A DNA stretch of 64,000 nt from Gemmatimonas sp. (GTDB lineage Bacteria; Gemmatimonadota; Gemmatimonadetes; Gemmatimonadales; Gemmatimonadaceae): assembly GCA_031414535.1 (NCBI GenBank), contig JANNVQ010000017.1:25450-89449 (forward strand). Reading direction: 5' to 3'. Shown here in pieces: positions 1,960-17,951 of the stretch (position 1 is its first letter; every line of letters begins with the position of its first letter). Made by a program: the position numbers and the translations under genes. The notes beneath the pieces are model-generated. The model was not told the origin of the DNA, made no database searches, and saw only the letters and a list, made by a program, of their open reading frames with translations.

Positions 1960-3240
1960 ATGTTCGACTCCAAGACCCGCACCATCGTCATCGTCGGCGC
2001 CCAATGGGGCGACGAAGGGAAGGGAAAACTCGTTGACGTCCTCGCCGAGCGCGCCGACTGGGTGGTGCGGTATCAGGGGGGCGCGAACGCGGGCCATACG
2101 GTGCATGTGGGAGATGAGTCCACGGTGTTGCATCAGGTGCCGAGCGGCATCCTGCACCCAGGAGTGCGCTGCGCGATTGGCAACGGCGTCGTGCTCGATC
2201 CCGAGGGAATGTTTGAAGAAGTGGACGCGCTGGTGGCGAACGGCGTGGACGTCGCGGGCCGCCTGTACCTGAGCGACCGCGCACATCTCGTGATGCCGTA
2301 TCACAAGCTCGTGGATAAGGAGAGCGCCGCGAGCAAGGTGATTGGCACCACGGGTCGCGGCATTGGTCCGGCCTACGAGGATAAGGTCGCGCGCCGTGGC
2401 ATCCGCGTGCTCGACTTGCGTCACCCGGCGCGTTTGAAGGCGCTTGTGGAGCGCGGCACGGACCACGCGAATCACATTCTCGCGGGCTTCGGCTCTGCGA
2501 AGCGCGCCGATGCGGCGTTCACGCTCTCGGAATTGGAGCGCATCGCGCCGCGTCTCTTGGCGATTGCTGAGGACGTGGGCCTGGCGGTACATCGCGCGCA
2601 GAAGCAGGGCGCAGCGGTACTCCTCGAGGGCGCGCAGGGCTCGCTGCTCGACGTGGATCACGGTACCTACCCCTTCGTGACCTCGTCCAGCACCACGGCC
2701 GGTGGCGCGGCGATTGGCATTGGCATCGCGCCGCGGTCGTTGGATGCGGTGCTCGGTGTGGTGAAGGCGTACACAACGCGAGTCGGTGGCGGCCCGATGC
2801 CCACCGAATTGCTCGACGCCACCGGCGAGGAATTGCGAAAGGTCGGCAATGAGTTTGGCGCCACCACTGGGCGCCCGCGCCGTTGCGGTTGGTTTGACGC
2901 CGTTGTTGTGCGCTATGCCGTGCGTGTGAACGGGCTCACCGGCCTCGCCGTAACCAAGCTCGACGTGCTCGACCAGTTCGAGAAGATCGCGCTGTGCACG
3001 GGCTACAAGATTGGGAATGAGGTGATGACGGAGTTCCCCGGCGACTTGGCGGACCTCGAAGGCATTGAGCCCGTGTACGAGTGGTACGATGGGTGGAAGT
3101 CTTCGACCCAGGGTGCACGCAAGCTCAGCGACCTGCCGAAGCAGGCCCGGACGTATCTCGACCGGCTCGTGGAAGTCGCGGAATGCCCGGCCCAGTATGT
3201 CAGCGTGGGCACACGCCGGGACCAAATTATCGGGCTGTAG
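1960..3240 (+). CDS. purA: Adenylosuccinate synthetase
   Basis: GAQWGDEGKGK, QGGANAGHT, GTTGRGIGP, EGAQG, HGTYPFVTSS, GATTGRPRRCGW. Start set at ATG 1960 (MFDSK). Confidence 0.98.
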   Translation: MFDSKTRTIVIVGAQWGDEGKGKLVDVLAERADWVVRYQGGANAGHTVHVGDESTVLHQVPSGILHPGVRCAIGNGVVLDPEGMFEEVDALVANGVDVAGRLYLSDRAHLVMPYHKLVDKESAASKVIGTTGRGIGPAYEDKVARRGIRVLDLRHPARLKALVERGTDHANHILAGFGSAKRADAAFTLSELERIAPRLLAIAEDVGLAVHRAQKQGAAVLLEGAQGSLLDVDHGTYPFVTSSSTTAGGAAIGIGIAPRSLDAVLGVVKAYTTRVGGGPMPTELLDATGEELRKVGNEFGATTGRPRRCGWFDAVVVRYAVRVNGLTGLAVTKLDVLDQFEKIALCTGYKIGNEVMTEFPGDLADLEGIEPVYEWYDGWKSSTQGARKLSDLPKQARTYLDRLVEVAECPAQYVSVGTRRDQIIGL

Positions 3241-3357
3241 TTGGCGCTGGCCTGCGCGGCACAAACATGGGAGTTTCTCCTCTCCGCATGCCATTTCTCG
3301 TAGGAATCGACCCACTCGCGTTCAACTCATGTGAGCCCGGTCACGCAATTCTCGTTC

Positions 3358-3377
3358 AGGTGTAAGGGTTTACACCT
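3358..3377. promoter_or_regulatory. Perfect inverted repeat, candidate operator upstream of the envelope/caspase cluster
   Basis: AGGTGTAA-gggt-TTACACCT within the ~250-nt intergenic region. Confidence 0.45.
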
Positions 3378-3491
3378 TGCGAACCTTCTCTCGATACCCA
3401 AAATTGTGGGCGGTAGGGAACTAGCTGAGATGGCTCCTTGTCATCCTTTCGGACTAGTCCTGACTCACAAGTCCTGGGAGGGACTGTAAAA

Positions 3492-4073
3492 ATGAAGCAT
3501 GTCGTTCTTGTTGCCTCACTTGCGACCCTCGCTGCGGCTTGTGCCTCGGCCCCGGCCACGACCACGGTCACCAACCAGGGTGCAGTTGTCTCCGACATCC
3601 CCACTTGGTTCACCACGGTTCCGACGGATTTGAACATGCTGTACCAGCCGTCCACCTCGGAGTCGCGCGACCTTCAGCTGGCCATCAACAAGGCCACGGC
3701 GGACGGCCGCAATGGCATCGCGCAGCAGATGGAGACGCGCTTCCAGGGTCTCACCGAGCGCTTCCAGGAAGAGACGGGCCTTGGCGCTGACGCTGAGCTC
3801 CTCGACCAGTTCCGTCAGGCGTACCGTGGCGTTGTGAGCCAGACCCTCAATGGCTCGCGCGTCGGCCGTCAGGAAATCCGCAACAACGGTGTTACCTACC
3901 GCGCCTATGTTTTGGTTGAGATGCCAATTGGTGCCGCGAACCAGGCGCTCATGCAGCGCATCCGTGCGAACGAGCGGATGTTCACCCGCTTCCGCGCGGC
4001 GCAGGCATTCGAAGATCTTGACCGCCAGGTTAAGGCCTACGAAGAGTCGCAGCGCCCGCCTGCCAATCCGTAA
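3492..4073 (+). CDS. LPP20-like lipoprotein
   Basis: GGGAGG RBS, lipobox LAAAC, IPTWF motif, 'LAINKATADGRNGIAQQM' helix and 'YRAYVLVEMP' strand typical of LPP20-like domains. Confidence 0.75.
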   Translation: MKHVVLVASLATLAAACASAPATTTVTNQGAVVSDIPTWFTTVPTDLNMLYQPSTSESRDLQLAINKATADGRNGIAQQMETRFQGLTERFQEETGLGADAELLDQFRQAYRGVVSQTLNGSRVGRQEIRNNGVTYRAYVLVEMPIGAANQALMQRIRANERMFTRFRAAQAFEDLDRQVKAYEESQRPPANP

Positions 4074-4082
4074 GCGCGGCCG

Positions 4083-4877
4083 GTGTTTCGCGGGTCCCTG
4101 GGGTGGCAGCCCCTGCTTGCGGGTGTGCTGGTTCTGACGGGATCCGCGTGTGCACCGAGCGCTTCTGCGCCGGTGCGCTCGCCGGTTTCGACGGCAGTGC
4201 GGACGAGTTCAGAAAGGTTTGAATACCCGGCATGGTTCGTGCAAGGACGTTCGGACGGGGTCGTGGTCGGATACGCGCCTGATTTTGCCACCACTGCGAC
4301 CGCCGAGAGCTTGGCGGTATTAGATGCTGCCGCGAGGGCACGCTTGTCGGTTCGGATGCGAATTCGTGTGGACGCAGGGTTCGAGGCTCGTCCTGGCGAG
4401 CGGTTGGACAGCCAAGGCGAGATCAGCGAGGAGGAGCCGCTCACTGACAGCTTCCCTGTGTTTGTACGGGGAGCGGCGTCGGCGCGTGGCATGTACTTAG
4501 TGGCCGCTGGAGCGGATTCCACTGCACCGCGGATACCGTCAGCGATGGTCACCTTGGGTGCTGAGATTCCGCCCTGGATTGAGCACCCGCCGGCGACTGA
4601 TGGGGAGTGGTGGTACGGCGTTGGAGTGTCCACGGCGTATGCCCGGGAATACTTCTCATGGGACGAGGCTGAGCGTCACGGCAGGCAGACCTTGGCTCTG
4701 AATGCGGGTGCGAGACTACGCTCGGTGATGCGTGGGACGGACGAGGATGACTCGGCGGTGATGCAGGTCAGCACCGCGGTTGAGATGGAATCGGTGTCGG
4801 TGGTGTTGCGCTGGCGCGACACCGGGAATTGTTATGTGTTGGTTCGAGGCCGCATTCTGGCGGTCCGAGGCCGGTAA
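4083..4877 (+). CDS. Lipoprotein with two LPP20-like repeats (hypothetical)
   Basis: Lipobox-like GSAC. Two internal units start YPAWF and IPPWI, each followed by G-x-x and an A..AR/GR..LA helix, ending in YLV/YVLV. Confidence 0.6.
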   Translation: MFRGSLGWQPLLAGVLVLTGSACAPSASAPVRSPVSTAVRTSSERFEYPAWFVQGRSDGVVVGYAPDFATTATAESLAVLDAAARARLSVRMRIRVDAGFEARPGERLDSQGEISEEEPLTDSFPVFVRGAASARGMYLVAAGADSTAPRIPSAMVTLGAEIPPWIEHPPATDGEWWYGVGVSTAYAREYFSWDEAERHGRQTLALNAGARLRSVMRGTDEDDSAVMQVSTAVEMESVSVVLRWRDTGNCYVLVRGRILAVRGR

Positions 4878-4909
4878 GCTTCTTCTGCTGTTGCATGAGG
4901 TTGATCGAA

Positions 4910-7441
4910 ATGGCTCACAGTCTCTTTGATACCCGCGCTTTGCGCGTGGCCCTCCTGCTCCTTGCGATGCCGTTGACGTTGGCGGCACAGGGAAACCAAC
5001 TCGCAGAAATCGAAATTGCTGCCGACAGCTCCGGCCAGCCGATTTCCGTAAACGGGCGTCAGATGGGCGTGACTCCCGCGACGGTGAGAATCGCGCCGGC
5101 AGCAGGTGTTCGCATCGAAGTCGGCCGCGGCGCTCGCATGCGCGGGCTCACGCTGGACGTGCCAGCCTCCGCCCGCATCAAGGTGGAGATGACGATGCCG
5201 CGTGACACGCAGCCGCTGCCGCGCGTGCGCACGCAGGAAGAGATTCAGCGCGCGCTCTCCGGGTCCAGTAATTACCCGACGCCCAGCGCCCCTGTCGCAC
5301 CGATTGCGCCGCGGCGTCCGGGCTTCTTCGGGAGCTTGGTGATGGGTGGCGCACTGATTGGCGGCGGGGCCTTTGTGGCCTCCTCGGGAGCCTGCGACCA
5401 GAGCTTCACGTCACCGGCGCCGTCCGGTGGCTATGTGGGTGGTACGTACTATGCGCCTGGCGAGCATTCGCTGGGCGTCGCGGCCAGCTGCCAGGCCAGC
5501 GCGGCGGCCGTTGGCGCTCTTGTTGGCGCTGGTGCCTTGCATCTCATTCGCCGCGGGAGATACAAGTCGCGTCAGGCGAGCTTTGCCTCCGCACAGGCGC
5601 AGCATCGGACGGCGCAGGTCGCCTATGAGCGGTCCGTCACGGATCGTGAACGGCGCTTCCGCGAAGATGTGCAGAAGGCACTCGACGGCGACCAAGCTCA
5701 GCGTGTGGCCGTTGCCTCGAACAACGACCGCGCCATCCGTGCCAATCAGGAACTGCCGCTCGTGACCTTCTTGAACACGACGCGGAGCCAAGTCGTCGGC
5801 GGTCGCACGAACATGGTCCCGCCCGCGCTGCGCATTCAGTCTGTCTCGTTTGAAGATGCCGATGGTGATTCCGTCATCTCGGCCGGTGAACGCGCCACAG
5901 TGAAGGTGCGCTTGCAGAACACCGGTCGCGGCGCAGGCGTGAACGTGCGTGTTGATGCGAAGTCCACCTCACGTCTCCGCTTTCAGCCGGCGCTGGTCGG
6001 TACTGTCGCCGCCGGTGACATTCGTGAGGCCGTACTCGAGGTCATCGCCACGCAGGACGTTACGGATGAGCAGGCCGCGCTCGACATCACGCTGGTTGAG
6101 GCAAACGGCTTCGACTCCGAGCCACTGCGTCTCTTGGTGCCGGTGATGGCGTACCGTCCACCCAACCTGAGCATCCTCGGTGCGCAAGCCGTTGACGCCG
6201 AGGGTCGCACCGTCATCCGGCCCGGTTCGCAGGCCACCGTGACCGTGCGCGTGCAGAACCGCGGCCAAGGTCTGGCGGAGAACGTGCGCTTGGTCATCGC
6301 CCTTGGCGACAGCACAATGTTCTTTGCGGACAATCCCACCATGAACGTCGTCACGCGTGATCTCGGGCGTATGCGCGCGGGAGCGTTCCAGGATGTGAAG
6401 TTCGAAGTGATCGTGAACAACCGCGCGACGCGCTTCGCGCTGAACGCATCGATTACGGAACAGTCGGGTCGCTATTCCTTGGCACCGCGCGACCTTGGCC
6501 TCCAGTTGAACCGCCCGCAGCAGAGCATCGCGCAGGTGGTGGCAGTGGAAGCGCCACGGCCAGGGGTTGGTGCTGGTGCCGTGCCCGGCACGTTTGGATC
6601 TGACCTTTTGCAGGGTATTCCGCGGGTGGCGGAGAATCCGAATTCTGTCGCGATCATCATTGGCAACTCGCAGTATTTGGGCGGCATTCCGCCGGTGCAG
6701 TTCGCGGCCAATGACGCGGTGGTGATGCGTCAGTATGCCGAGCAGTCGCTCGGCGTGCGGCCGGGCAACATCGTGATGCTCAACAACGCGACCATGTCGC
6801 AACTGCGCACGACGTTCGGAGAACGCGGCAATCCGAATGGCCGTTTGCGCAACATGATTCGCCCCGGTGTGAGTGAGGTCTTCGTGTTCTACTCCGGCCA
6901 CGGTGCGCCGGACGCCGCTGAGCGCAAGGCGTACATCATGCCGGTGGATGCGGATGCCAGCTTGCTCTCGCTCACGGGATACAGTGTGGATGTGCTCTAC
7001 GAGAATCTCGCGGCGATTGGCGCCAAGCACGTGACGGTGGTGATTGACGCCTGCTTCTCCGGCGCCACCGGTGGCGGCGAAATGCTCATCAAGTCGGCCT
7101 CGCCGATTGGCATTCAGGTCAATGATCCGGCGCAACGCTTCCAAGGTGGTAACGCCACAATCATTGCTGCGGCCGAAGGGCAGCAATTGGCCAATTGGTA
7201 TGACGAAAAGAACCACGGCTTGCTGACGTACTTCTTTTTGAAGGGTTTGCAAGGGCAGGCGGACAAGGACCAGAACGGCGAAGTGTCGGTGGCGGAGATG
7301 CGCGGGTTCCTGACCGATCCGGCCTATGGCATCCCGTATGAAGCGCGGCGTTTGCACAGCCGCGATCAGACGCCTCAGGTGTTTGGTTCTGGGGAGCGCA
7401 CCCTACGTGCGAAGCCTGTTGAAGCCGCGGGGCAGCCGTAA
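4910..7441 (+). CDS. Exported multidomain caspase-family (peptidase C14) protein: signal peptide, PEGA, hydrophobic hairpin, coiled coil, 2x CARDB/Ig-like, caspase domain
   Basis: Signal peptide ..LAAQ, PEGA-like ISVNGRQMGVTP, AIIIGNSQY, FAANDA, His in FYSGHG, Cys in IDACFSG, HGLLTYFFLKGL, EF-hand-like loops DADGDSVISAGE and DKDQNGEVSVAE, QTPQ. GAGG RBS before ATG 4910. Confidence 0.88.
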   Translation: MAHSLFDTRALRVALLLLAMPLTLAAQGNQLAEIEIAADSSGQPISVNGRQMGVTPATVRIAPAAGVRIEVGRGARMRGLTLDVPASARIKVEMTMPRDTQPLPRVRTQEEIQRALSGSSNYPTPSAPVAPIAPRRPGFFGSLVMGGALIGGGAFVASSGACDQSFTSPAPSGGYVGGTYYAPGEHSLGVAASCQASAAAVGALVGAGALHLIRRGRYKSRQASFASAQAQHRTAQVAYERSVTDRERRFREDVQKALDGDQAQRVAVASNNDRAIRANQELPLVTFLNTTRSQVVGGRTNMVPPALRIQSVSFEDADGDSVISAGERATVKVRLQNTGRGAGVNVRVDAKSTSRLRFQPALVGTVAAGDIREAVLEVIATQDVTDEQAALDITLVEANGFDSEPLRLLVPVMAYRPPNLSILGAQAVDAEGRTVIRPGSQATVTVRVQNRGQGLAENVRLVIALGDSTMFFADNPTMNVVTRDLGRMRAGAFQDVKFEVIVNNRATRFALNASITEQSGRYSLAPRDLGLQLNRPQQSIAQVVAVEAPRPGVGAGAVPGTFGSDLLQGIPRVAENPNSVAIIIGNSQYLGGIPPVQFAANDAVVMRQYAEQSLGVRPGNIVMLNNATMSQLRTTFGERGNPNGRLRNMIRPGVSEVFVFYSGHGAPDAAERKAYIMPVDADASLLSLTGYSVDVLYENLAAIGAKHVTVVIDACFSGATGGGEMLIKSASPIGIQVNDPAQRFQGGNATIIAAAEGQQLANWYDEKNHGLLTYFFLKGLQGQADKDQNGEVSVAEMRGFLTDPAYGIPYEARRLHSRDQTPQVFGSGERTLRAKPVEAAGQP

Positions 7442-10400
7442 TGCGTCCTGTACTTCGCTTGGTATTGTGCGGCGTTGCTCTGCTTTCCTGCGCGCCTGAA
7501 GTTATCGTTGCGCCTCCGGAACCAGGGACGGTGACGGTCACGATCGCTGCGAGCACCATTCTGCAGGGTTCGACGACTCAGGCCACGGCCACTGCAACGG
7601 ATTCACGTGGGCTTGTGCTGTCGAGCGAGCCGCGGGTGTGGACCTCGTCGGCGCCACTGGTGGCGTCTGTGAGCGCAACCGGCTTGGTGACTGCATTGGC
7701 CCCGGGCTCGGCTCAGATCAGCGCCTCCGTGCTTGGGCGCACGTCTGGGGTGGCGGTGACGGTGTTGCCGCGCGCGGTGCGCGTGACGGTCACACCGGAC
7801 TCGGCAACGCGTACGTACGCAGACACCGTCCGTTTTACTGGCGCGGCCTTCGCTGTCGGTAATGCGGCGATGCCGGGCGCGCCCATGGCGTACTCGATCA
7901 CGACGGGCAGTAGCTTCGCGTCCGTCAGCACCACGGGCTTGGTCACGCCGGTGCTGCAGTTCGATACGGTCACGCGGCTGGTCACTGTGCGCGCGACCTC
8001 TGATACGGCGTCGGGCACGGCCCAGTTGCGCTTGCGGAAGCTGCCAATCGATACCGTCATCGTCTCACCGGCCAGCGCGAGCCGCACGGCGGGTCTGACG
8101 GCTCAGTTCACGGCCGAGGCTCGGCGCACGAACGGGTCGGTGCTGACGGATCGTGTGGTCACTTGGACGAGCAGCAACACCGGCGTAGCCACTGTCAACG
8201 CGAGTGGCTTGGTGACTGCGGTCGCCGCGGGCACTGCGACCATCTCGGCCACGTCCGAGACCCGCGTCACGACGGCGGTTGTGACGGTTACCAACACGCC
8301 CGTGCAGACGGTGGATATTGTGTTGCCGTCGCTTACGACGCCGTTGACGGCGCTCAACCTTGCGAACGGCCGCACGCAGCAATTGAACACCATCCTCAAG
8401 GACGCAGGGAACAATGTTCTGACGGGGCGCACGGTCACGTGGAGTTCGGGCACCCCCGGCGTGGCGACGGTGTCGGCGACGGGAGTCGTTTCTGCGGTTG
8501 CTGCCGCAGGCACGACCATTATCACCGCCACCTCTGAAGGGCAGACGGCGTCGTTCACACTCACCATCGGAAATCCGGTCGCGAGCGTGACGCTGCCCGC
8601 GAGCATCGCGGTGTCGAACGTGCAAACAACGAGCCAGACCGTGACGGTACGGGACGTCAGCCTCGTGGGCCTCGCTAACCGCGTGGTGACGGTCACGTCT
8701 ACCAACCCTTCGATTGTCACTGCCACCCCTGCCGTTTCGCAGACCAACATCTCAGGCGTTGTCACTCTCGCGGTGCGAGGCGTCGCGGTAGGCTCCGCGT
8801 CAATCATTGCGAGTTCCGAGGGCTTTGCCGACACCGTGCTGGTCACGGTGTCTACGGCCGTGCCTGCTTCCATCACTTTTGATGGCTACCTCGCCCTCAC
8901 CACGACTCCAAGCATCAGCACAGGTAGGACGTACCAAGCGGTAGCCACGGTGCGCGACAACCTTGGCAACGCCATTCCTGGCCAGGCTGTCACTTGGACG
9001 TCATCCCTACCGACAGCGGCGACGGTCAGCACGTCTGGCCTCGTCACCGGCGTTGGCGCTGGCTCTACGCTCATCACTGCCGCGGTGACTTCGAATCCTG
9101 CGATTTCCCTCGGCCGCACGTTTACAACCCAGAACCCGGTCGCGACAGTTCTGTTGTCCAGCAGCACCATCTCTGGCGTGGTGAGCTTGGTGAGCAACGT
9201 GACCGTGACGCCGCGCGATGCAGCGAACGCGACTCTCACTGGCCGTCCGTTCACGGCCACGTCGTCGGACACGACAATTGCCAGGGTGATATTGGTGTCC
9301 GCGAATCAGATTCAGGTCACCAACGTGCGAATCGGCACGGCCGTGATTACGGTCGCGTCTGAGGCTGTCACTTCTACGATCAACGTGACGGTGACACCGC
9401 CGCCGGTGGCCTCGGTGATCATCACGGGCGGCACGACGCTGAATCGCAGTAGCACACTGCAGTTGACAGCGACGACGCGTGACGCGGGCAACAATGTGCT
9501 CACGGGCCGCACGGTCACGTGGTCCTCGTCAAATCCGGCCGCCGCGACAATCAACGCGTCGACTGGCTTGGTCACGGGCGTTGGCGTTGGCTCCACCCTG
9601 ATTACGGCCACGAGTGAAGGCATCAACGGCACGGTGACAATTTCTGTCACCACCGATGTGACGCAGGTGATTGTCGCACCGAGCACGTTCTCCCTCGCAG
9701 TGGGGGCGACGCAGACCCTCACAGCCACGCCGCAGAATGCCGGTGGCACGGCACTGACCGGACGGACGGTCACTTGGACGAGCCTCAGCCCGACCATCGC
9801 AAGCGTGAACGCCTCCACCGGCGTTGTGACGGGCGTGGCAATCGGCTCCGCGACCATCCGTGCTACCGTGGATGGCGTGATTGGTAACGCCACGGCAACC
9901 GTCACCGCAGCGGTCAACGTTTGCGATCCGGTCGCACACACACCGCCCTCGACGGTTAGCGGTTCCGTAACCACGACGGACTGCATCGTGACCGCCGGCA
10001 CGACGTTCGAAGACATCTTCACGCTCACCTCTGGTGCCAGCCGCGTGATGTCATGGAACGTCACGCCGACCGGAGGCTCGCTGCTGTTGGCGCGGCAGCT
10101 GCAGCAGAATACGAGCAGCGGGCCCTTCATCAGCACGACCTTCGCCGCCAACGGTATGGCGTACGGGCTCTACGGAGCTGGCACGCATCGCTTCTCTGTG
10201 CGGAACACAACGGCAGCTCCTGTGAACTATTCGTTCACGACGAATGCGGCCGCGACAATCCCTAACGAATGCGTGGTCGTGTCCACCCATATCGGATCCG
10301 GCGTGTCGGCCAACTTGAGTCTCGGGACCGCCTCCTGCTACGCCAATTCCAAGCGCTACGGTCGGTTCTGGATGCATATGGCGGCGGGGCAGCAGGTCAC

Positions 10401-10686
10401 CATCACGATGACGGCCGCCTACGACGCATTCCTCGAACTGTATCCTCTCAATGGCGACGGGACGGTGGGCACGCGGGTCGCCTCCGACGACGACGGCGCG
10501 GGTGGTACGAATTCGCGCATCATCTTCACGGCGACCACGGCGGGATTCTTCGAACTCCGATCCACGACGTTCGCGAACGACATCACCGGCGCATACACGC
10601 TCTCGTTGAGCAGTACGCCGTCGAACCTGATGGCGCCTGATGCGAGCGCTCCCCTCGCGATTCGCACCCCGGATTCCCGTCCGTGA
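7441..10686 (+). CDS. Large Ig-like (Big_2) repeat surface lipoprotein with C-terminal PPC-like domain
   Basis: Lipobox LLSC. About 9 repeats of VTW(T/S)SS..ATV..GLVT(A/G)V. C-terminal 'VTITMT..YDAFLEL..VASDDDGAGGTNSRI..GAYTLSL' is PPC-like. Confidence 0.88.
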   Translation: MRPVLRLVLCGVALLSCAPEVIVAPPEPGTVTVTIAASTILQGSTTQATATATDSRGLVLSSEPRVWTSSAPLVASVSATGLVTALAPGSAQISASVLGRTSGVAVTVLPRAVRVTVTPDSATRTYADTVRFTGAAFAVGNAAMPGAPMAYSITTGSSFASVSTTGLVTPVLQFDTVTRLVTVRATSDTASGTAQLRLRKLPIDTVIVSPASASRTAGLTAQFTAEARRTNGSVLTDRVVTWTSSNTGVATVNASGLVTAVAAGTATISATSETRVTTAVVTVTNTPVQTVDIVLPSLTTPLTALNLANGRTQQLNTILKDAGNNVLTGRTVTWSSGTPGVATVSATGVVSAVAAAGTTIITATSEGQTASFTLTIGNPVASVTLPASIAVSNVQTTSQTVTVRDVSLVGLANRVVTVTSTNPSIVTATPAVSQTNISGVVTLAVRGVAVGSASIIASSEGFADTVLVTVSTAVPASITFDGYLALTTTPSISTGRTYQAVATVRDNLGNAIPGQAVTWTSSLPTAATVSTSGLVTGVGAGSTLITAAVTSNPAISLGRTFTTQNPVATVLLSSSTISGVVSLVSNVTVTPRDAANATLTGRPFTATSSDTTIARVILVSANQIQVTNVRIGTAVITVASEAVTSTINVTVTPPPVASVIITGGTTLNRSSTLQLTATTRDAGNNVLTGRTVTWSSSNPAAATINASTGLVTGVGVGSTLITATSEGINGTVTISVTTDVTQVIVAPSTFSLAVGATQTLTATPQNAGGTALTGRTVTWTSLSPTIASVNASTGVVTGVAIGSATIRATVDGVIGNATATVTAAVNVCDPVAHTPPSTVSGSVTTTDCIVTAGTTFEDIFTLTSGASRVMSWNVTPTGGSLLLARQLQQNTSSGPFISTTFAANGMAYGLYGAGTHRFSVRNTTAAPVNYSFTTNAAATIPNECVVVSTHIGSGVSANLSLGTASCYANSKRYGRFWMHMAAGQQVTITMTAAYDAFLELYPLNGDGTVGTRVASDDDGAGGTNSRIIFTATTAGFFELRSTTFANDITGAYTLSLSSTPSNLMAPDASAPLAIRTPDSRP

Positions 10687-11543
10687 TGCTGATCCGACGG
10701 CTCGCGTCGGCGGTCACGCTGCTGCTGCCCGCCGTTGCCCACGGGCAGGGTGGCAGCAGTTGTGCGCCCGGCCTCGACGCCGAGTGGCAGCGGGTGCGCC
10801 TCATCCGCTACGTCTCGCCCGATCGGTCGCGCGCCCAAGTCGAACAACTCCTCTTGGGCGAGGCGCGACGCCTCGCCGTGCAGCAGGCCGTCGGTATCGC
10901 CATCGCGAGCACAACCACGCGCACGCAATACGAAGCGATGGCGAACGGCGAATCGAAGGAGTATCGCGACAACTTCTTCGAGCTCTACTCGCAGGAGGCG
11001 GCCGGTCTCATCGTTGAAGAGAAGCACACCACCGCCCGGCGCGGCGATGACTCGCTCTCGGTGGTCTACGAGGCTCGCGTCAGCTGTGACACGGGGCCGG
11101 TCGCGGCGGGCTTCACGGCTAAGGTGGAGACCAACCAAGAGACGTACCGGGAGCGGGACCAAGTCACCATTGACGTGGAAGCGAGCGACTCCTCCCGCGT
11201 CTACCTCTTCTCGATGGCGCAAGACGGATCTGCGGTGATGATCTTCCCGAACCACATCGACGCTGCCAACACGCTGCGGCCCGGTGTGAAGCGCGTCGTT
11301 CCTGGGCCTGGAGCGCTCTACAGTTTGCCCGTCAGTCTCGATCAGCGCTTCGGGCCGTCGCAGAACGAAATGCTGCTCGCCATTTTCTATCGGGGCTCCG
11401 GGCCGCCGCCCTTCCGTGCGGCGGATGCGTTCTCAAAGGTCTTCACGCTGCAGGAAATCAATCGCGTCTTGCTGTTAATCCCGCGCGCAGAGAGAACTCG
11501 CGTCGCGACCGGCTACGAGATCCGCGCCCGCGCGGAGCGCTAG
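10683..11543 (+). CDS. Secreted LPP20/FlgT_N-like + DUF4384-like protein (paralogue A)
   Basis: Sec signal AVAHG-Q, 'EARRLAVQQAVG' helix, and C-terminal 'YRERDQVTI..VYLFS..DGSAVMIFPN' DUF4384 pattern. Confidence 0.75.
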   Translation: MMLIRRLASAVTLLLPAVAHGQGGSSCAPGLDAEWQRVRLIRYVSPDRSRAQVEQLLLGEARRLAVQQAVGIAIASTTTRTQYEAMANGESKEYRDNFFELYSQEAAGLIVEEKHTTARRGDDSLSVVYEARVSCDTGPVAAGFTAKVETNQETYRERDQVTIDVEASDSSRVYLFSMAQDGSAVMIFPNHIDAANTLRPGVKRVVPGPGALYSLPVSLDQRFGPSQNEMLLAIFYRGSGPPPFRAADAFSKVFTLQEINRVLLLIPRAERTRVATGYEIRARAER

Positions 11544-11568
11544 CATCGCGCGCGCCGCCGCCGCGCCA

Positions 11569-12498
11569 TTGTTGCGCCCGCGAGTGACCATCATACTCGC
11601 GCTGGCGCTCGGCGTTGGGCTTGCCTGCGCCTCGTCCCCACGGCCCACCGCGGCGACACCCTCAGCTTCCCCCGCCAATTCCGGACCCTGGCAGCAGCGC
11701 GAGTCGCCAACCCCGAGCCTGGGCTGCGTGCCTGGGCTCGAGCGCGAGTGGCAGCGCCTTCGCCTCTCCCGCTATGTACCACCGGACCGTTCGCGCGCGC
11801 AGGTGGAGCAGGTGCTGCTCAGCGAGGCGCGCGTGCTCGCCGTCCAGCAGGCCGTTGGCATCAGCATTGCCACGACCACCTCGCGGGCGCAGTACGAGGC
11901 GATGTCGAACGGATCATCGCGGGAGTATCGCGATCACTTCATTGAGCTCTATAGCCAAGAGGCGGCGGGCCTGATTGTGGAGGAGCGCCATCGCACGGCG
12001 CGTCCGTACGCCGATTCCTTGGCCCTCACGTACGAGGCACGCGTCGCCTGCGATGCGGGGAGTGAGGCGGCGGGATTCACCGCATCCCTCAGCACGGACC
12101 AGCTGGTCTACCGCGCAGGCGATTCCATCAGAATTGCGGTGCGCGCGTCCGATGCGGCAAGGCTCTATCTCTTTTCCGTGTTACAGGATGGATCCGCTCG
12201 GCTCATTTTCCCCAATTCGATTGAGCCGCGCAACGAGCTTGTTGGCGGCGGAGCCCGCACGATTCCCAGTCCCGGTGGTGTCTACCGCCTGACCGCGGAG
12301 CTAGATTCGCGCTTCGGTGCAACGCAGGCCGAGTTGTTGCTGGGCATCTTCCTCACTGGAGACGTTCCTTCGCCGTTTCGTGCCCAAGACGCCAAGGTGG
12401 TGGAGTTCTCTCTCGAGGAGATCAACCGCATCCTGCTGCGAATCCCCCGTGCCCAGCGGACGCGGGTCGCGGTCGGTTACGAGATTCGTGCGCGCTAA
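11569..12498 (+). CDS. Lipoprotein LPP20/FlgT_N-like + DUF4384-like protein (paralogue B)
   Basis: Lipobox GLAC. Colinear paralogue of 10683-11543, with 'YRAGDSIRI..LYLFS..DGSARLIFPN'. TTG start is uncertain. Confidence 0.75.
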   Translation: MLRPRVTIILALALGVGLACASSPRPTAATPSASPANSGPWQQRESPTPSLGCVPGLEREWQRLRLSRYVPPDRSRAQVEQVLLSEARVLAVQQAVGISIATTTSRAQYEAMSNGSSREYRDHFIELYSQEAAGLIVEERHRTARPYADSLALTYEARVACDAGSEAAGFTASLSTDQLVYRAGDSIRIAVRASDAARLYLFSVLQDGSARLIFPNSIEPRNELVGGGARTIPSPGGVYRLTAELDSRFGATQAELLLGIFLTGDVPSPFRAQDAKVVEFSLEEINRILLRIPRAQRTRVAVGYEIRAR

Positions 12499-12513
12499 TC
12501 GCGCGCCGCTTCG

Positions 12514-15500
12514 ATGACCGTACCCGCCTCACCCTCATTCCGACTCCACACGCTCGGCACGGCGACGCTCGAGCGCCGCGACGACGCTGGCACCTGGGAG
12601 GTGGTGATGCGCGCGAGCAAGCCGCTTGCGCTGCTGGTGTATCTCGCCACGGTCGCCGGGCGCTCACTCTCGCGCGAACAGCTGGCCGACTCGCTCTGGG
12701 GCGACGAATCGCCTGAGCGCGCCCGCGCCTCGCTGCGTCAGGCCATTTACGCGCTCAAGCAGGTAATCGGAGAGGAGGTACTGCAGAGCGAGCGCGAAGT
12801 GGTGGTGCTCCGCGAAGGCGCCATCGAATGCGATCGCGATGCCTTTGTCGCCGCCATGCGGCGCAATGATTTGGACACGATGCTGTCCGTGTATCACGGG
12901 GCCTTCTGCGATTCGCTCACGGTGGGTGGTGCCACGGAGTACGATCGCTGGATGCGGGCTGAGCGCTCACACCTGGAGCGCCTCCTGCTTGATCGCGCGC
13001 AAAGCGTGGTGGCGGCACGCATCGCGGCGGGAGAGGGCGATTCCGCGCTGGTGGCGGCTCGTGCACTTGAACGACATCTCGCCGACCGCAGCGAGGTCCA
13101 GGTGTTGCTCTTTGACGCGCTGGTGGCCTCAGGAGGGAGGCTCGAGGCGGTGCAGCGGCTTTCGGCGCACGCCTCTCAGCTCTCCTCGCAGGAACTGTCC
13201 ATTCCCCCGCAGATTGCCGAACGCATCGCGCGCGTGCGGCGGGCCGCACTCGAGACGCCAGCACCGTCCAGTAATTCCCTCAGTTCCATTGGCGAGCATC
13301 TGATTGGCCGCGATTCCCTGCTCGGGGAACTCTCGCGCGAGGCAGAAGCGGCGCGCGGCGGCGGCGCCCGCCGTGTGATTCTGAACGGACCAGCTGGCGT
13401 AGGCAAGACCCGTGTGCTGGATGAACTGGAAGCGCGCCTCCGGCTTCGCGGCGCCCGTGTGGTGCGCGCCGGTTTATTGCCGAGTATGCAGGATGTCGAG
13501 AACTCGGCGCTAGTGGAAGTCGTGCGCGCGGTCTGCGATCTCCCGGGTGCGTTGGGCGTGTCGGAGCAGTCGGCACGGCGCCTGGTTCGCGTACTGCCAG
13601 AGTTGCGGACCCGCTTTCCGGGTGTGCCACGCGATTCGCAGTTGGGATCGGATGACATTCGTGCACTGCAGGTTGCTGTGTCGGATCTGCTCGCCTCGGT
13701 ATCCGAGGAACGCCTGGTCGTACTGATGCTCGACAACGTGCATCACGCTGATGTGGCGTCTTTGCAGGTGATGATTGGCACACAGATTCATCCAAAGAGC
13801 CGCCTGCTCCAGTTGTGGACCTCGCGCAGCGGACGGGAGTACACGAGTGATTCTGGCACGTCGGTCATTGATGTGCTCCCGCTCGCCGAGCCGGACGTGG
13901 TTGCGCTGCTCTCTGCGGTGGCTCGGGTGCCGGATGAGCCGTGGATGCATGGACTCGCGGCGGCGCTCTACCGCCGTTCGCGCGGGGTGCCGCTCTTAGT
14001 GCTGGCGGCCATCCGTTCATTAGGTGCAGCCGGACTGCTGCGCATCTCACAGGGCATGTGGACCAGCGAGCGCCCGGAGGCACTGCTGCAAATGGCGAAC
14101 GCCACGGCGGGCACCGGCGCTCTGGTTGCTGGCGTGGATGCCGTGTCGCGCTTGGCACTTGAGGTGCTGGCGGCGTGGGGTCGGCCGATGGAGGAGCGCG
14201 ACCTGCTCGGAACCCTGGCATTCGCGGCGCGCGCGGTAGGGATGGACGAATGGCGCGCGTGCCTTCGCCGCCTCGAATCGCTGGGTCTCGTACAGTCCCG
14301 CGACGTGAACTGGGCCATCGCCCACGACACGGTGGCAGATGAGTTGCGCGCCACGCCTTCCACGGTACTCAACGACGCGCCGCGCGAGCTCTTGTTCGCG
14401 TACTGGAGTGCTCCCACCAGACTCACGGTGAACGCGTTCGAGCAGCTGGCCCTGCTCACCGGGCAAGAGGCCTCGCCCATGATGGCCTTACGTCTCGCAC
14501 GCGTGGCCCAGAAGCTGCCGCGCTTCTCCGATGCTGGGCTCCGCGGCCGTGAGCTCACGCGACGCATTGCTCGGCAGTCTGGTCATCCGGAGTGGGAACG
14601 CGATATTTCACATGGGATTGGCTTTTTTGCGCGGCAATCGGACGGGACGCGCTTTGCGTTGGCAGTGGTGATGACCTTTGCGCTCATGGGACTCTCTGTC
14701 CTCGCGGTGCAACTGCAGCCGCGCATCGTGATTGAGAGTGTCCCGATGGCGGAGCAAAGCCGAGAAGGTGAGGCAGCGGAATTCGTAGTCCAGCCGCGCG
14801 TGCGCATTGCGGACGGTTTTGGGAGGGCGAGCGAGCTCGAGGTACCCGTGCGGGTGACCGTGGACCACGGCCGCCTTGTTGGTGAAACGCTACGCAAGAC
14901 AGAGAAGGGGCGACTGCAATTCGAGAGCGTGGCCTTGATACGTGGCCCGTCGCGGTCCGATGGACGCCCTGTGCATGTGCACTTTGAAGGACCCTGGTAC
15001 GTTCGTCCAGCAACCACGGAGATTCCAGGCCTCAGTACCGCGTACACCCGCGATGGATTTCGCATCGTGGCGCTCACGGCTAACGGAGTCCCCGTCGGGG
15101 ATGACTTCGTTGTGAGCGTGAAGGTGCGGGATTCGATTCGCTTTGACTTGGCCTTCGAGTATACGACCGGAATGCCAACGGCCAATTACATTCTTGGGGC
15201 GATGCCTACTTGGGGGAGGCGGGAGCAGAGTGCCATTCGACTGGCTGGACTCCCACGCCCCGTCGTGAATGCCTGGCGCTGGGTGACCTTTGCTGTTCCA
15301 CCACTTGGACGCCCCGGTGAGGAGTACGTGCTGATTCTGATGGACGCCGAAGACACGGTGGACCATATGTTCTCGAGCACCAGTTGGCAGGCGGGCGCTC
15401 CACGCTGGAATGATGGGAATGATCTCGTTGATCTTGGGCGGGAGTTCTTTGAGGACCTGCGGCGGTCCGGGACGGCAGTTGCCGAAGGCCAAGCACGCGC

Positions 15501-15636
15501 ACTGTACTCCAAACAGCAAGGAGGGTACCGCGTGGGTGATCAGGTGGTACTCAGAGACAAACGGGATTCTGCCGCTTACACGATCCCACGCGTCATCACC
15601 GGTCGCGCCGTGCTGGTGCGCTTTACCGAGAACTGA
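12514..15636 (+). CDS. SARP/BTAD-like regulator fused to AAA ATPase, one TM helix and an extracytoplasmic beta domain
   Basis: N-terminal LHTLG..KPLALLVYLA..SREQLADSLWG..ARASLRQA (AfsR/SARP-like), Walker A GPAGVGKT, Walker B VVLMLDNVH, SRGVPL, TM FALAVVMTFALMGLSVLAV. Confidence 0.85.
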   Translation: MTVPASPSFRLHTLGTATLERRDDAGTWEVVMRASKPLALLVYLATVAGRSLSREQLADSLWGDESPERARASLRQAIYALKQVIGEEVLQSEREVVVLREGAIECDRDAFVAAMRRNDLDTMLSVYHGAFCDSLTVGGATEYDRWMRAERSHLERLLLDRAQSVVAARIAAGEGDSALVAARALERHLADRSEVQVLLFDALVASGGRLEAVQRLSAHASQLSSQELSIPPQIAERIARVRRAALETPAPSSNSLSSIGEHLIGRDSLLGELSREAEAARGGGARRVILNGPAGVGKTRVLDELEARLRLRGARVVRAGLLPSMQDVENSALVEVVRAVCDLPGALGVSEQSARRLVRVLPELRTRFPGVPRDSQLGSDDIRALQVAVSDLLASVSEERLVVLMLDNVHHADVASLQVMIGTQIHPKSRLLQLWTSRSGREYTSDSGTSVIDVLPLAEPDVVALLSAVARVPDEPWMHGLAAALYRRSRGVPLLVLAAIRSLGAAGLLRISQGMWTSERPEALLQMANATAGTGALVAGVDAVSRLALEVLAAWGRPMEERDLLGTLAFAARAVGMDEWRACLRRLESLGLVQSRDVNWAIAHDTVADELRATPSTVLNDAPRELLFAYWSAPTRLTVNAFEQLALLTGQEASPMMALRLARVAQKLPRFSDAGLRGRELTRRIARQSGHPEWERDISHGIGFFARQSDGTRFALAVVMTFALMGLSVLAVQLQPRIVIESVPMAEQSREGEAAEFVVQPRVRIADGFGRASELEVPVRVTVDHGRLVGETLRKTEKGRLQFESVALIRGPSRSDGRPVHVHFEGPWYVRPATTEIPGLSTAYTRDGFRIVALTANGVPVGDDFVVSVKVRDSIRFDLAFEYTTGMPTANYILGAMPTWGRREQSAIRLAGLPRPVVNAWRWVTFAVPPLGRPGEEYVLILMDAEDTVDHMFSSTSWQAGAPRWNDGNDLVDLGREFFEDLRRSGTAVAEGQARALYSKQQGGYRVGDQVVLRDKRDSAAYTIPRVITGRAVLVRFTEN

Positions 15637-15651
15637 GCGCGCGAGCGAAGC

Positions 15652-16410
15652 CTACCACTCCGGGGTCGCGAGTCCCTGCAGCAGGGGCCGCGCAAACCGA
15701 TAACCTTGAAAGAGCCGAATGCCCATTTCGCGCAGGACCTGGACCTCTTCGTCCACTTCGACACCCTCCGCGATCACCGTGATGCCTAAATCGCGGCAAG
15801 TCTGCACTGTGCCGGCGATAATGGCGCGCCGCGTGCGATCCTGGTGAATGTTGCGGATGAGCGCCATGTCGAGCTTGATGAGATCCGGCTCAAAGTCCGC
15901 GAGCAACGAGAGGCCGGCGTAGCCGGCACCGAAATCATCGATGGCGGTTTTGAATCCCTGGCGTTTGTACTCAGCGAAAATGCCTTTTAGATGCGCGCGG
16001 TCGCCCACGGGTTCGGCTTCGTTCACTTCGAAGATGATCTGCGACGTGGGGAATCCAAGTTCCGTCGCGGCCTCGAGTGTGACCCGGATGCAGGTTTCTG
16101 GACGGTAGACGGCGTTGGGCAGAAAGTTGATGGATACCGGCACCGTCATGCCGACCCTGGACGCCTCGGTGATGGCCGTGACGCGCGCCGCTTGATCGAA
16201 GCGGTAGCGGTTCTGGTCGTTCACCTTAGCGAGCACGTCCGCGGCTCCCGAGCCATCGGCTCCACGTACCAGGGCCTCGTGCGCAAAAATCGTCCGTGTC
16301 TCCACGTCCACAATGGGCTGGAAGGCCATTGTGATCTCGAAGTCGAGCCCGGCGCCATCTCGGCAGGCTTTACAGGTGAGATGCGGGGGGAGGGCGGGGA
16401 GCGCAGGCAC
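15652..16410 (-). CDS. Stand-alone EAL-domain c-di-GMP phosphodiesterase
   Basis: FQPIVD, EALVR, SINF, FEVNE, IDDFGAGYAGL, IKLD, AEGVE and QGY are all present. N-terminal CKAC. Confidence 0.93.
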   Translation of the reverse strand: MPALPALPPHLTCKACRDGAGLDFEITMAFQPIVDVETRTIFAHEALVRGADGSGAADVLAKVNDQNRYRFDQAARVTAITEASRVGMTVPVSINFLPNAVYRPETCIRVTLEAATELGFPTSQIIFEVNEAEPVGDRAHLKGIFAEYKRQGFKTAIDDFGAGYAGLSLLADFEPDLIKLDMALIRNIHQDRTRRAIIAGTVQTCRDLGITVIAEGVEVDEEVQVLREMGIRLFQGYRFARPLLQGLATPEW

Positions 16411-16423
16411 GGTTAGAAAGGTG

Positions 16424-16459
16424 GACGGATGACGGATGATGGATGACGGAATGAACGGC
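16424..16459 (-). repeat. Heptamer tandem array GCCGTTC-(ATCCGTC)n in the EAL gene leader
   Basis: + strand reads GACGGAT GACGGAT GATGGAT GACGGAAT GAACGGC. Confidence 0.8.
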
Positions 16460-16552
16460 TATGTGAAAAGATATCCGCAAGGGCTCCCGACCGCTCGCCG
16501 GAGCGCGTCCGAAGCCTCAGGCCAGAGATTAGATTTGTCCTGAGCATTTCGC

Positions 16553-16573
16553 ATCCGTCTTCCGTCATCCGTC
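16553..16573 (+). repeat. Heptamer tandem array (ATCCGTC)x3 in the glyQS leader
   Basis: ATCCGTC TTCCGTC ATCCGTC, ending 4 nt before ATG 16578. Confidence 0.8.
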
Positions 16574-16577
16574 CCCC

Positions 16578-17951
16578 ATGCGCCCCGACGTCCTCGAATC
16601 CCTCGTCAGCCTAGCCAAGCGCCGCGGCTTCGTCTTCCAGTCCTCCGAGATCTACGGTGGTACCGGATCGGTGTGGGATTACGGGCCACTGGGCGTAGAG
16701 CTCAAGAATAACGTCAAAGCGCGGTGGTGGAATGCGATGGTCCGCGAGCGCGATGACGTGGAGGGTCTCGACGCCGCCATCTTGATGCATCCGCGCGTGT
16801 GGGAAGCCTCGGGCCACGTATCCGGCTTCTCCGACCCGCTCATCGATTGCAAGGCCTGCAAGGCCCGGTTCCGCGCCGACAAAATTGCCGACGCGCAATG
16901 CGCGCGGAAGCCGAGCAAGAAGCCGGGCGAGCACACGGATTGTCAGCTCACCGAGCCGCGCCAGTTCAACTTGATGTTCAAGACCTTTATGGGCCCCGTC
17001 GAGGAATCGGCGTCGGTGGTGTATCTGCGTCCCGAGACGGCGCAGGGCATTTTCGTGAACTTCTTGAATGTGCAGCAGGCCACGCGTCAGAAGGTGCCGT
17101 TTGGCATCGCGCAGATTGGCAAGGCGTTCCGCAACGAGATCACGCCCGGAAACTTTACGTTTCGCACGCGTGAGTTCGAGCAGATGGAGATGCAGTTCTT
17201 CGTGGAGCCAGGCACGGACATGGAGCACTTCGAGCGCTGGAAGCAGGCGCGCCTCGATTGGCACCTATCGCTCGGCCTCGATCGCGACCGCTTGGAGTTC
17301 CATCAGCACTCGGAAAAGGAACTCGCGCACTACGCGCGCGCGGCCTTCGACATCAACTTCGATTTTGGTGGCACGCTCGGCTTCCAGGAAATCGAAGGCG
17401 TGCACAACCGCAGCGACTTCGATCTCAAGCAGCACCAGGAGTTCAGCACCAAGAAACTCGAGTACGTGGATCAGGCGGCGAATAAGCGCTACTTGCCGTA
17501 TGTGATTGAGACTTCGGTCGGTGCCGACCGCGTCACACTGGCCATCATGGTGAATGCGCTGCGTGAGGAGGCCGTCCCGGGTGAGACGGAAGGCCGTACG
17601 GTGATGGGATTTCATCCGGTACTGGCACCCATCAAGGCGGGCGTGTTCCCGCTCACCAAGAAGGACGGACAGCCGGAGATGGCCGAGAAGCTCGGCGCGG
17701 CGCTGCGCAAGAAGTTCAACGTGTTCTACGACGAGGCCGGCGCCATTGGCCGTCGGTATCGTCGGCAGGACGAAGCGGGCACACCCTTCGGCATCACGAT
17801 TGACAGCGACTCCACCGCCAACAACGACGTGACGATTCGCTTCCGCGACAACATGGGGCAGATTCGCGTGTCGACGGATCAGGTGATTGACGTGCTGACC
17901 AAGTATCTCGAGGCCGATCATCAGACGGCTGATTCCTCACTGGTGGGCTGA
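16578..17951 (+). CDS. glyQS: Glycine--tRNA ligase, homodimeric (alpha2) type
   Basis: [65 protein letters not shown]. Confidence 0.97.

Follow-up and report, generated by a model that had tools for sequence, protein, structure and literature searches.

Do the seven co-oriented genes that lie between purA and a convergent EAL gene in a Gemmatimonas sp. genome form one envelope machine built around an exported caspase, or only part of one? The genes, called G1 to G7 here (Table 1), occupy positions 3,492 to 15,636 of a 64,000-nucleotide stretch of assembly GCA_031414535.1 (contig JANNVQ010000017.1, positions 25,450 to 89,449 of the forward strand). This whole stretch is referred to as the window, and coordinates are those of the window unless a genome handle is given. 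The initial annotation had read all seven genes as a single surface-sensing circuit. Our analysis points to a real, conserved and apparently undescribed envelope module made from known domain families, which is smaller than the seven genes and has one member elsewhere in the genome. The core module is G1, G2, G3 and G5/G6, and the seven genes are not one unit. We lean, by a modest measure, toward the view that these genes form a widespread undescribed envelope module in which a non-flagellar scaffold of LPP20/FlgT_N fold tethers periplasmic cysteine enzymes. Behind this view stand the predicted folds, a catalytic dyad, export signals, and the joint occurrence of G1 with the caspase and G5 and of G2 with a transglutaminase-like enzyme, as judged from sequence comparison.

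The protease of the locus is G3, which matched Pfam Peptidase_C14 with an E value of 5e-10 (39.9 bits against a cut-off of 21.4). CARDB/DUF11-like and weak PEGA matches were found in the same protein, and its CARDB-like region also resembles TIGR03900, far below the cut-off. The His-Cys dyad, earlier described as intact, was borne out, with H664 (6899-6901) kept in all 43 aligned relatives and C715 (7052-7054) in 42 of the 43. Conserved in the same alignment were two acidic residues, D602 (95%) and D713 (98%), which we take to be S1 residues of the caspase domain. By profile, the closest solved relatives were yeast metacaspase-1 and MALT1 (E 3e-8 and 2e-6, respectively); a PDB search with the single caspase sequence gave no match. 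The conservation of D602 and D713 suggests, by analogy with metacaspases and MALT1, that the G3 caspase is probably Arg/Lys-specific. Two motifs of the DxDxDG type, at 316 and 785 of G3, are the one feature that bears on the Ca2+ regulation proposed in the initial annotation.

The caspase looks exported, as the initial annotation had proposed, since G3 begins with a predicted signal peptide. Further along, both cysteines of the Gly-rich hydrophobic hairpin were kept in 13 of 14 aligned homologues, and the hairpin also occurs in three short caspases that lack CARDB domains. Because both hairpin segments are only marginally hydrophobic (summed scale +2.2 and +4.9, compared with -1.7 for the membrane helix of G7), the hairpin was read as a putative anchor that would leave the caspase on the exported side. 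Signal-like N-termini were seen in 34 of 39 neighbouring caspases, most of them without the hairpin, by a lenient heuristic that had no control. A second exported caspase locus of the present genome (L205, G000:C30:81501-94056) holds an M48-like/TPR-like protein (assigned by eye), two caspases and several PPC-repeat proteins. One of these caspases has 781 amino acids and a weak C-terminal DUF4384 match (E 0.036); the other, of 1133 amino acids, is fused to PPC repeats and represents a type whose genus distribution differs from that of G3. At another locus (L051, G045:C44:25000-44999), a G1 homologue and a DUF4384 partner precede a tandem array of five exported caspase genes.

What could hold such a protease in place? 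G5 and G6 both carry DUF4384 (Pfam E 2e-12 and 1e-11, respectively). In the G5 model (predicted local distance difference test, pLDDT, 88), DUF4384 is an Ig-like sandwich and the N-domain has a beta-hairpin between its helix and second strand. Such a beta-hairpin insert has been correlated with the forming of rings by FlgP and FlgT (PMC12222027). Fold searches with G5 were dominated by the Ig domain, the best matches being the macroglobulin (MG) domains of complement C5 and A2M (Z about 9, a common fold), and the N-domain was assigned by profile. It aligned to G1 in HHalign at 85.5% and to solved FlgT with an E value of 1e-3, and Pfam recognized FlgT_N in 10 of 66 homologues. Weaker matches of the G5 profile were to two lipoproteins from entries for flagellar motors (E 0.011 and 0.3). 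The FlgT middle and C-terminal domains are absent from G5 and G6, in which DUF4384 is the sole other domain. G6 is 61-65% identical to G5, and a second copy was found in 3 of the 55 genomes of our genus set, 26 of which are at least 90% complete.

Complex modelling, a check that the initial annotation had suggested, came out in favor of a caspase-partner contact. The model of G3 562-843 with G5 scored 0.65, compared with 0.00 for the best of three controls; the score mark is reached by 116 of 157 solved pairs and by 2 of 215 mismatched pairs, a calibration that is roughly applicable here, with our own alignments used. At least 78% of the contacts were common to the runs, and the partner pLDDT was at least 76. 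Confident contacts connect G3 S729-P740 to an edge strand of DUF4384 (G5 210-220) and to N190 and E229, and H664 and C715 are not included. Among the interface positions of the partner are N189 (86% conserved) and E228 (98%), and hydrophobic positions alternate on both strands. The linker pattern is kept in the G3 caspase family and was not seen in the two other caspases of the genome. PDB sequence searches returned no comparable complex. The model supports binding of the G5 DUF4384 to the caspase linker by beta-strand addition, away from the dyad; docking at this position would make G5 less a substrate of the caspase than its adaptor or an allosteric regulator of it.

G1 and G2 supply the lipoproteins of LPP20 type. 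The AlphaFold2 (AF2) model of G1 (pLDDT 86) carries a helical insert and superimposes on H. pylori Lpp20 (5ok8) with Z 10.7 and a root-mean-square deviation of 2.8 over 105 aligned residues, the Foldseek E value being only 2.8e-3. Its Z scores against Tip-alpha and HP1454 were 7.0 and 6.0, respectively. The Pfam LPP20 score of G1 is 16.4 bits, below the cut-off of 25.9, and G2 has no match. PF02169 is nevertheless present in most G1 homologues, and one G2 homologue lies above the LPP20 cut-off. The two halves of G2 matched each other in HHalign at 96.6%, and its C-terminal and N-terminal halves matched G1 at 96.7% and 89.7%, respectively. The nearest ESM Atlas clusters to G2 are LPP20-named or unnamed (0.93, a weak recognition). 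An SHS2-like fold together with a lipobox is thus found in G1 by model and in G2 by profile only. The earlier count of four proteins with LPP20/FlgT_N-like domains holds, with five domains in total. G1 is 76% identical to its counterpart in two relatives, in which G2 to G7 range from 49 to 73%; a G1 homologue at 76% is named from the cultured strain Pseudogemmatithrix spongiicola 138.

The distribution of these genes within the genus ties the caspase and its partner to G1. G1 was found in 15 of the 55 genomes, the G3-type caspase (E<1e-50) in 14 and the G5 type in 13, and both the caspase and G5 occurred only in G1-positive genomes. None of the 40 G1-negative genomes had either gene; a distant caspase type occurs alone in five further genomes. 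In six genomes the caspase is on a different contig from G1, so linkage alone can not explain the co-occurrence. The full seven-gene order was seen in three genomes including the present one. Other genomes have G1-G2-G5 or G1-G5 at the purA-glyQS interval with the caspase elsewhere, or G1 alone at this interval plus a second locus of G1b-caspase-DUF4384-Ig. When the module is mapped on a tree of glyQS from 41 genomes, three changes are needed, two of them forced, and the nearest relative has purA directly against the EAL gene.

Beyond the genus, we examined 80 loci, the best 80 of 112 matches of one peptide pattern for G1 relatives, which come from several phyla and extend up to 10 kb on each side. 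G2 was present in 52 loci and stood directly after G1 in 50. The caspase was present in 23, the FlgT_N-DUF4384 partner in 25, and both in 17. Caspase and partner were found together in Gemmatimonadota, Bacteroidota, KSB1 and Calditrichota, with seven changes on the G1 tree of which at least three are forced. Their genes adjoin in 21 of 31 caspase-bearing loci (93 loci). The co-occurrence that the initial annotation expected therefore stood for caspase, LPP20 and DUF4384, which come together in at least four phyla, but not for the G7 type of BTAD protein, which is beside G1 in only 5 of the 80 loci. In a survey of the phylum, G1 was found in 14 of 301 genomes (one marginal) and the caspase in 8 of 13 fetched regions. 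Plasmids gave three distant G1 matches and two caspase matches, and the module was present in none of the four regions read. The distant G1 homologues on plasmids (L207, NZ_CP030360.1; L209, NZ_CP031094.1) include one in Salinibacter ruber and one beside traF/traH/traG. A record titled Synechococcus (L091) has a Bacteroidota-type gene order around G1 and is probably a misassigned contig.

No caspase was within reach in 57 of the 80 loci, so G1 does not need the caspase, and MltC, SH3-M48 and PrsW are found there instead. Among all 80, transglutaminase-like genes occurred in 15, MltC in 14, SH3-M48 in 19, and PrsW and CHASE2-cyclase in 17 each; LpoB and a COG3014-like family occurred in 7 each, BTAD-type genes in 6 and Big_2 in 2. 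One of three protease types was present in 48 loci, and the caspase never occurred together with MltC or PrsW. Caspase and G2 are uncoupled, with both in 13 loci, the caspase only in 10 and G2 only in 39. The replacement of the caspase by other enzymes beside G1 makes G1 a hub with exchangeable enzyme cassettes, the caspase cassette being one. A caspase-free variant (L079, L080, L094, L098, L105, L110, L115, L123 and others) has CHASE2-adenylate cyclase, SH3-M48 peptidase, MltC, a long LPP20 protein and PrsW, followed by G1-G2. Some G1 loci also hold LpoB-like and CsgG-like genes. An LpoB-like gene was considered as an obligatory partner of G1 and rejected, for it is present in 40 of the 55 genus genomes and in only 3 of the 15 with G1, a distribution that does not follow G1, and it was not found in 12 small module-bearing genomes. 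An LpoB-like gene, a small TPR-like lipoprotein and a COG3014-like gene stand in a row at L212 (G000:C8:11098-14083).

The member of the system outside the locus is a secreted transglutaminase-like protein. Cys and His are invariant and Asp is at least 90% conserved in the 14 aligned members of its family. Pfam Transglut_core was detected in 5 of the 14, weakly (best E 0.0018), and a comparison with PDB sequences, LapG included, gave no match. The gene is present in 8 of the 55 genus genomes, one copy being fragmentary, and these are exactly the eight with G2, although the two genes are on different contigs or far apart. In one genome it is two genes before a WD40-CARDB caspase in an operon-like run.

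G4 and G7 behaved differently from the core. Six stretches of G4 matched Big_2, and its PPC-like tip (E 2e-4, below the cut-off) diverges fast. Neither this tip nor the G3 hairpin had been noted in the initial annotation. An Ig gene lies beside the caspase in 2 of the 80 loci, as it does in the genus at loci of the second type. G4 is a lineage-specific accessory. G7 agrees with its earlier description as a transmembrane (TM)-anchored BTAD-AAA protein: Pfam found a winged helix (Trans_reg_C), BTAD and AAA_16, and there is one strong TM helix at 714-732. Its Walker A is intact; at Walker B, DN is found in G7 and in three orthologues, and DD in two others. The ectodomain gave only weak Ig-like leads in the ESM Atlas (<0.82). 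It is encoded in 23 of the 55 genus genomes, comprising all 15 with G1 and 8 of the 40 without. In seven of these eight G1-negative genomes, G7 is beside glyQS or EAL-glyQS with none of G1 to G6; the arrangement purA-G7-(EAL)-glyQS is whole in four of the eight, partial in three and unclear in one. The comparison of the purA-glyQS interval among relatives thus confirmed module genes there in some of them, and G7 was also there without the module. For this reason G7 is probably a resident of the interval and outside the module, though it may have a regulatory link to it. The five G7-type genes beside G1 in the 80 loci are all from close relatives, and the sixth BTAD-type match is an AAA-LuxR protein. 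With 12 Big_2 and 6 BTAD-type proteins in the present genome, such neighbours are common. The seven-gene unit was rejected on the distributions of G7 and G4. The dapA-purA interval of several relatives (L055, L058, L165-L168) holds a paralogue of G7 together with a BTAD-ATPase gene that is shorter and convergent.

Coordinates of the features are collected in Table 1. The layout given in the initial annotation was confirmed: purA ends at 3240 and is followed by seven open reading frames, with intergenic gaps from G1 to G7 of 9, 32, -1, -4, 25 and 15 bp, and then by the EAL gene (15652-16410) and glyQS. So were its six export signals (four lipoboxes, two Sec signals). Lipobox-like motifs were matched by pattern in G1 (AAAC), G2 (GSAC), G4 (LLSC) and G6 (GLAC), and the N-termini of G3 and G5 were judged Sec-type by eye and hydropathy. 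The lipobox pattern also matches G5 at Cys27 (GSSC), which we read as chance. An NCBIfam scan of the seven proteins gave nothing above cut-off.

Table 1. Features of the G1-G7 locus and the unlinked enzyme gene
Feature	Position	Strand	Description
G1	3492-4073	+	Lipoprotein of the Lpp20 (SHS2-like) fold that carries a helical insert; module hub, most conserved gene
G2	4083-4877	+	Lipoprotein with two LPP20-type repeats (profile comparison)
G3	4910-7441	+	Exported C14 caspase-type protease; order: signal peptide, weak PEGA, Gly-rich hairpin, coiled stalk, two CARDB-like domains, caspase domain
Gly-rich hydrophobic hairpin of G3 (residues ~139-213)	5324-5548	+	Conserved C162 and C194; putative membrane anchor
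Post-catalytic linker of G3 (S729-P740)	7094-7129	+	Predicted DUF4384 binding site on the caspase (complex model)
G4	7441-10686	+	Big_2 Ig-stalk lipoprotein with PPC-like tip; lineage-specific accessory
G5	10683-11543	+	Secreted; FlgT_N/FlgP-type domain with beta-hairpin insert and DUF4384 Ig-like domain; predicted caspase adaptor
G6	11569-12498	+	Lipidated G5 duplicate; FlgT_N-like and DUF4384
G7	12514-15636	+	Winged helix-BTAD-AAA_16-TM-ectodomain regulator; probably outside the module
Transglutaminase-like secreted gene	G000:C30:22676-24394 (outside the window)		Member of the family beside G1 in 15/80 loci

The cassette has a GC content of 62-66% and a third-position GC content (GC3) of 69-82%, compared with a GC3 of 78-81% in the housekeeping neighbours. 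A recent foreign island was not supported by GC or GC3, and comparison by eye with the nearest relative, whose site is empty, showed no junction repeat. A single contig of 13.8 kb, from a DNA run that may be the source of the window itself, covers 3178-16932 with zero differences, and no well-supported joint skipping the gene cassette was found in DNA contigs. The DNA runs holding the locus are from freshwater sediment in a single study, and no RNA run containing it was listed. Promoter and terminator scans were at chance level (1 against 1.9 and 10 against 9.3, respectively). The window has no tRNA, and Rfam gave no match in 1-22000. An element bounded by inverted repeats, resembling a repetitive extragenic palindrome (REP) or a miniature inverted-repeat transposable element (MITE) and without an Rfam match, lies at 16420-16575 upstream of glyQS; a 12-mer from it is found 130 times genome-wide, where 0.3 occurrences are expected, and forms 20 inverted pairs within 250 bp.

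How would such a module work? Lipidated G1, G2 and G6 would be anchored at the outer membrane, and LPP20/FlgT_N domains may mediate their joint assembly with G5, like that of FlgP and FlgT in the Vibrio H-ring. The FlgT_N-like domain would build G5/G6 into the scaffold, where their grip on the linker of the caspase would set both the position and the activity of the protease. Held and switched at the scaffold, the caspase could process envelope or surface proteins. G2 would play the same adaptor part for the transglutaminase-like enzyme, G4 would be an exchangeable surface arm serving ligand capture or as a substrate, and G7 a neighbour. More tentatively, the scaffold may be a general non-flagellar one of the outer membrane, a counterpart of the FlgP/FlgQ/FlgT rings that employs its own LPP20-fold adaptor for each enzyme: FlgT_N-DUF4384 for the caspase, G2 for the transglutaminase-like enzyme, with LPP20 proteins of other types serving LpoB-COG3014 (6 of 6 loci) or MltC/PrsW. 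On this view DUF4384 would be a transferable switch on the caspase linker that sets activity, and fusions and certain Csx30 proteins would employ the domain again.

Several observations weigh against a scaffold that tethers the caspase. The G3 hairpin could be an inner-membrane stop-transfer segment, which would alter the topology, and the signal-peptide test of the neighbouring caspases was lenient and control-free. The insert of G1 is helical, unlike the ring-associated beta-hairpin. The alignments behind the complex model were ours, and adding a strand to the edge of an Ig domain is an easy mode of docking. Mean conservation of the partner interface (0.35) is not above that of the rest of the domain (0.37), and a mirror-distance test gave a caspase-partner correlation of 0.53, not above the 0.64 for partner and G1, and thus no specific signal. 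The genus counts amount to about three independent branches, with 11 of the 13 module genomes in the glyQS tree forming one clade. Many of the 80 loci end at contig edges, the set partly overlaps the genus set, and most of its loci have no caspase within reach of G1. The genus count of the transglutaminase-like gene is a floor from a stricter first look, and its profile had no match in five G1-positive, G2-negative genomes, a search without positive control.

Could the partner be the substrate instead? On this account, a docked DUF4384 presents G5/G6 for cleavage, by which the FlgT_N-like assembly domain would be released or inactivated, comparable to the cutting of Csx30 by Csx29 within the C-terminal domain. 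The tight pairing of the caspase and DUF4384 partner genes is consistent with it, and exosite docking fits the complex model. In 10.1101/2022.08.17.504292, one group of Csx30 C-terminal domains is DUF4384, and it is in the C-terminal domain that the characterised Csx30 is cut. The characterised domain is, however, outside the DUF4384 group, and Csx29 is a CHAT protease. DUF4384 also occurs fused to caspases (PMC7475262), and the confident contacts are confined to caspase 729-740, away from H664 and C715; we regard the substrate role as unlikely. The circuit of the initial annotation, in which the caspase cuts the G7 ectodomain or G4 on surface contact with G7 as the transcriptional output, was not supported by the distributions and seems to us rather improbable. 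It draws on the G7-type ectodomain in all 15 G1-positive genus genomes, the recurrence of the seven-gene order in two other genomes, the fusion of G4-like PPC domains to another caspase of the present genome, and the second locus type with caspase-DUF4384-Ig in a row. Yet G7 occurs without the module in 8 of 40 G1-negative genomes, with purA-G7-(EAL)-glyQS whole in four; beside G1 it is limited to 5 of 80 loci, the Ig gene is beside the caspase in 2 of 80, and Big_2 and BTAD-type proteins are numerous in the genome.

Slightly less probable again is that the transglutaminase-like enzyme, which we liken to LapG, controls adhesins by releasing or cross-linking proteins of the surface, G4 for example, and has G2 for an adaptor, the caspase being a separate module sharing the locus. 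The conserved Cys-His-Asp and the Transglut_core matches, the exact genus match of the enzyme with G2 and the uncoupling of caspase and G2 in the 80 loci argue for it. Nonetheless, PDB sequences, LapG among them, gave the family no match. In six genomes that have both G2 and the enzyme, the G1 and caspase loci read were free of Ig genes, and one genome has the enzyme in an operon-like run with a caspase, which points to a single system. We give the lowest probability to the absence of any common machine, with purA-glyQS being a hotspot that collects unrelated envelope genes. The interval is indeed variable, being empty or holding G7 only, G1 only, G1-G2-G5 or all seven genes; but in four phyla the same genes are neighbours away from this interval as well, they co-occur when unlinked, and the complex model passes its controls. 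The scaffold of G1, G2 and G5/G6 with tethered enzymes is the reading that we prefer.

Why does this matter? Exported bacterial caspases were noted in 2012, and no role for them, nor any function for DUF4384, was found in the literature searched. The locus yields precise testable predictions, namely the binding of DUF4384 to caspase 729-740 and the pairing of G2 with the transglutaminase-like enzyme. If true, the scaffold would show a job of the FlgP/FlgT fold outside flagella. The cultured strain Pseudogemmatithrix spongiicola 138, with its G1 homologue, means that a laboratory host may exist.

The literature searched, from which most subscription journals are outside coverage, contained no description of the module, and it is best placed by comparison with known systems. 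The Vibrio H-ring (FlgT, FlgP, FlgO) and the Campylobacter basal disk (FlgP, FlgQ) share with it the SHS2-like LPP20/FlgT_N fold and lipidated members. The single-domain G1 followed by the two-repeat G2 recalls FlgP followed by FlgQ; FlgQ resembles a two-FlgP repeat (PMC12222027), and FlgP contacts FlgT_N in the H-ring (10.64898/2025.12.02.691832). In contrast with these structures, the module has DUF4384 in G5 in place of the FlgT middle and C domains, has enzymes attached, and is known here from genes and models. FlgH, the only flagellar gene searched for, was not found in the present genome (98% complete, search controls positive) or in 14 of the 15 module genomes, and a flagellar role was rejected on this absence. 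The sole FlgH match among module genomes (G001:C63:2149-2721, E 1.7e-53) is far above the other genus matches and may be from a contaminant contig. G1 has the fold of the H. pylori Lpp20/Tip-alpha/HP1454 family, but only 17% identity and a context of caspase, DUF4384 partner and transglutaminase-like enzyme.

On the protease side, G3 has the dyad and acidic residues of bacterial orthocaspases and metacaspases (C14). It differs from them in being exported, in its Gly-rich hairpin and CARDB-like domains, and in having DUF4384 in trans on a FlgT_N-like protein; its context is the envelope, whereas theirs is cell death or defence. Possible signal peptides on prokaryotic caspases and DUF4384-protease fusions are on record, without function, in PMC3501461, PMC7475262 and PMC6426788. 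The type III-E Csx29-Csx30 system (Craspase) likewise has a caspase-fold protease with a dedicated partner, and one Csx30 group ends in DUF4384. Csx29, in contrast, is a cytoplasmic, RNA-triggered CHAT protease with an anti-sigma output, and Pfam and NCBIfam found no CHAT protease, Cas7-11, Csx30 N-domain or sigma factor among the seven genes. Comparable in arrangement are NlpI-Prc and LbcA-CtpA. In these, outer-membrane lipoprotein TPR adaptors hold periplasmic S41 serine proteases that act on cell-wall hydrolases. The module is alike in that an adaptor would hold a protease, whereas the adaptor folds and the class of protease differ, the sole sequence link being the TIGR03900 match of the G3 CARDB-like region, far below cut-off.

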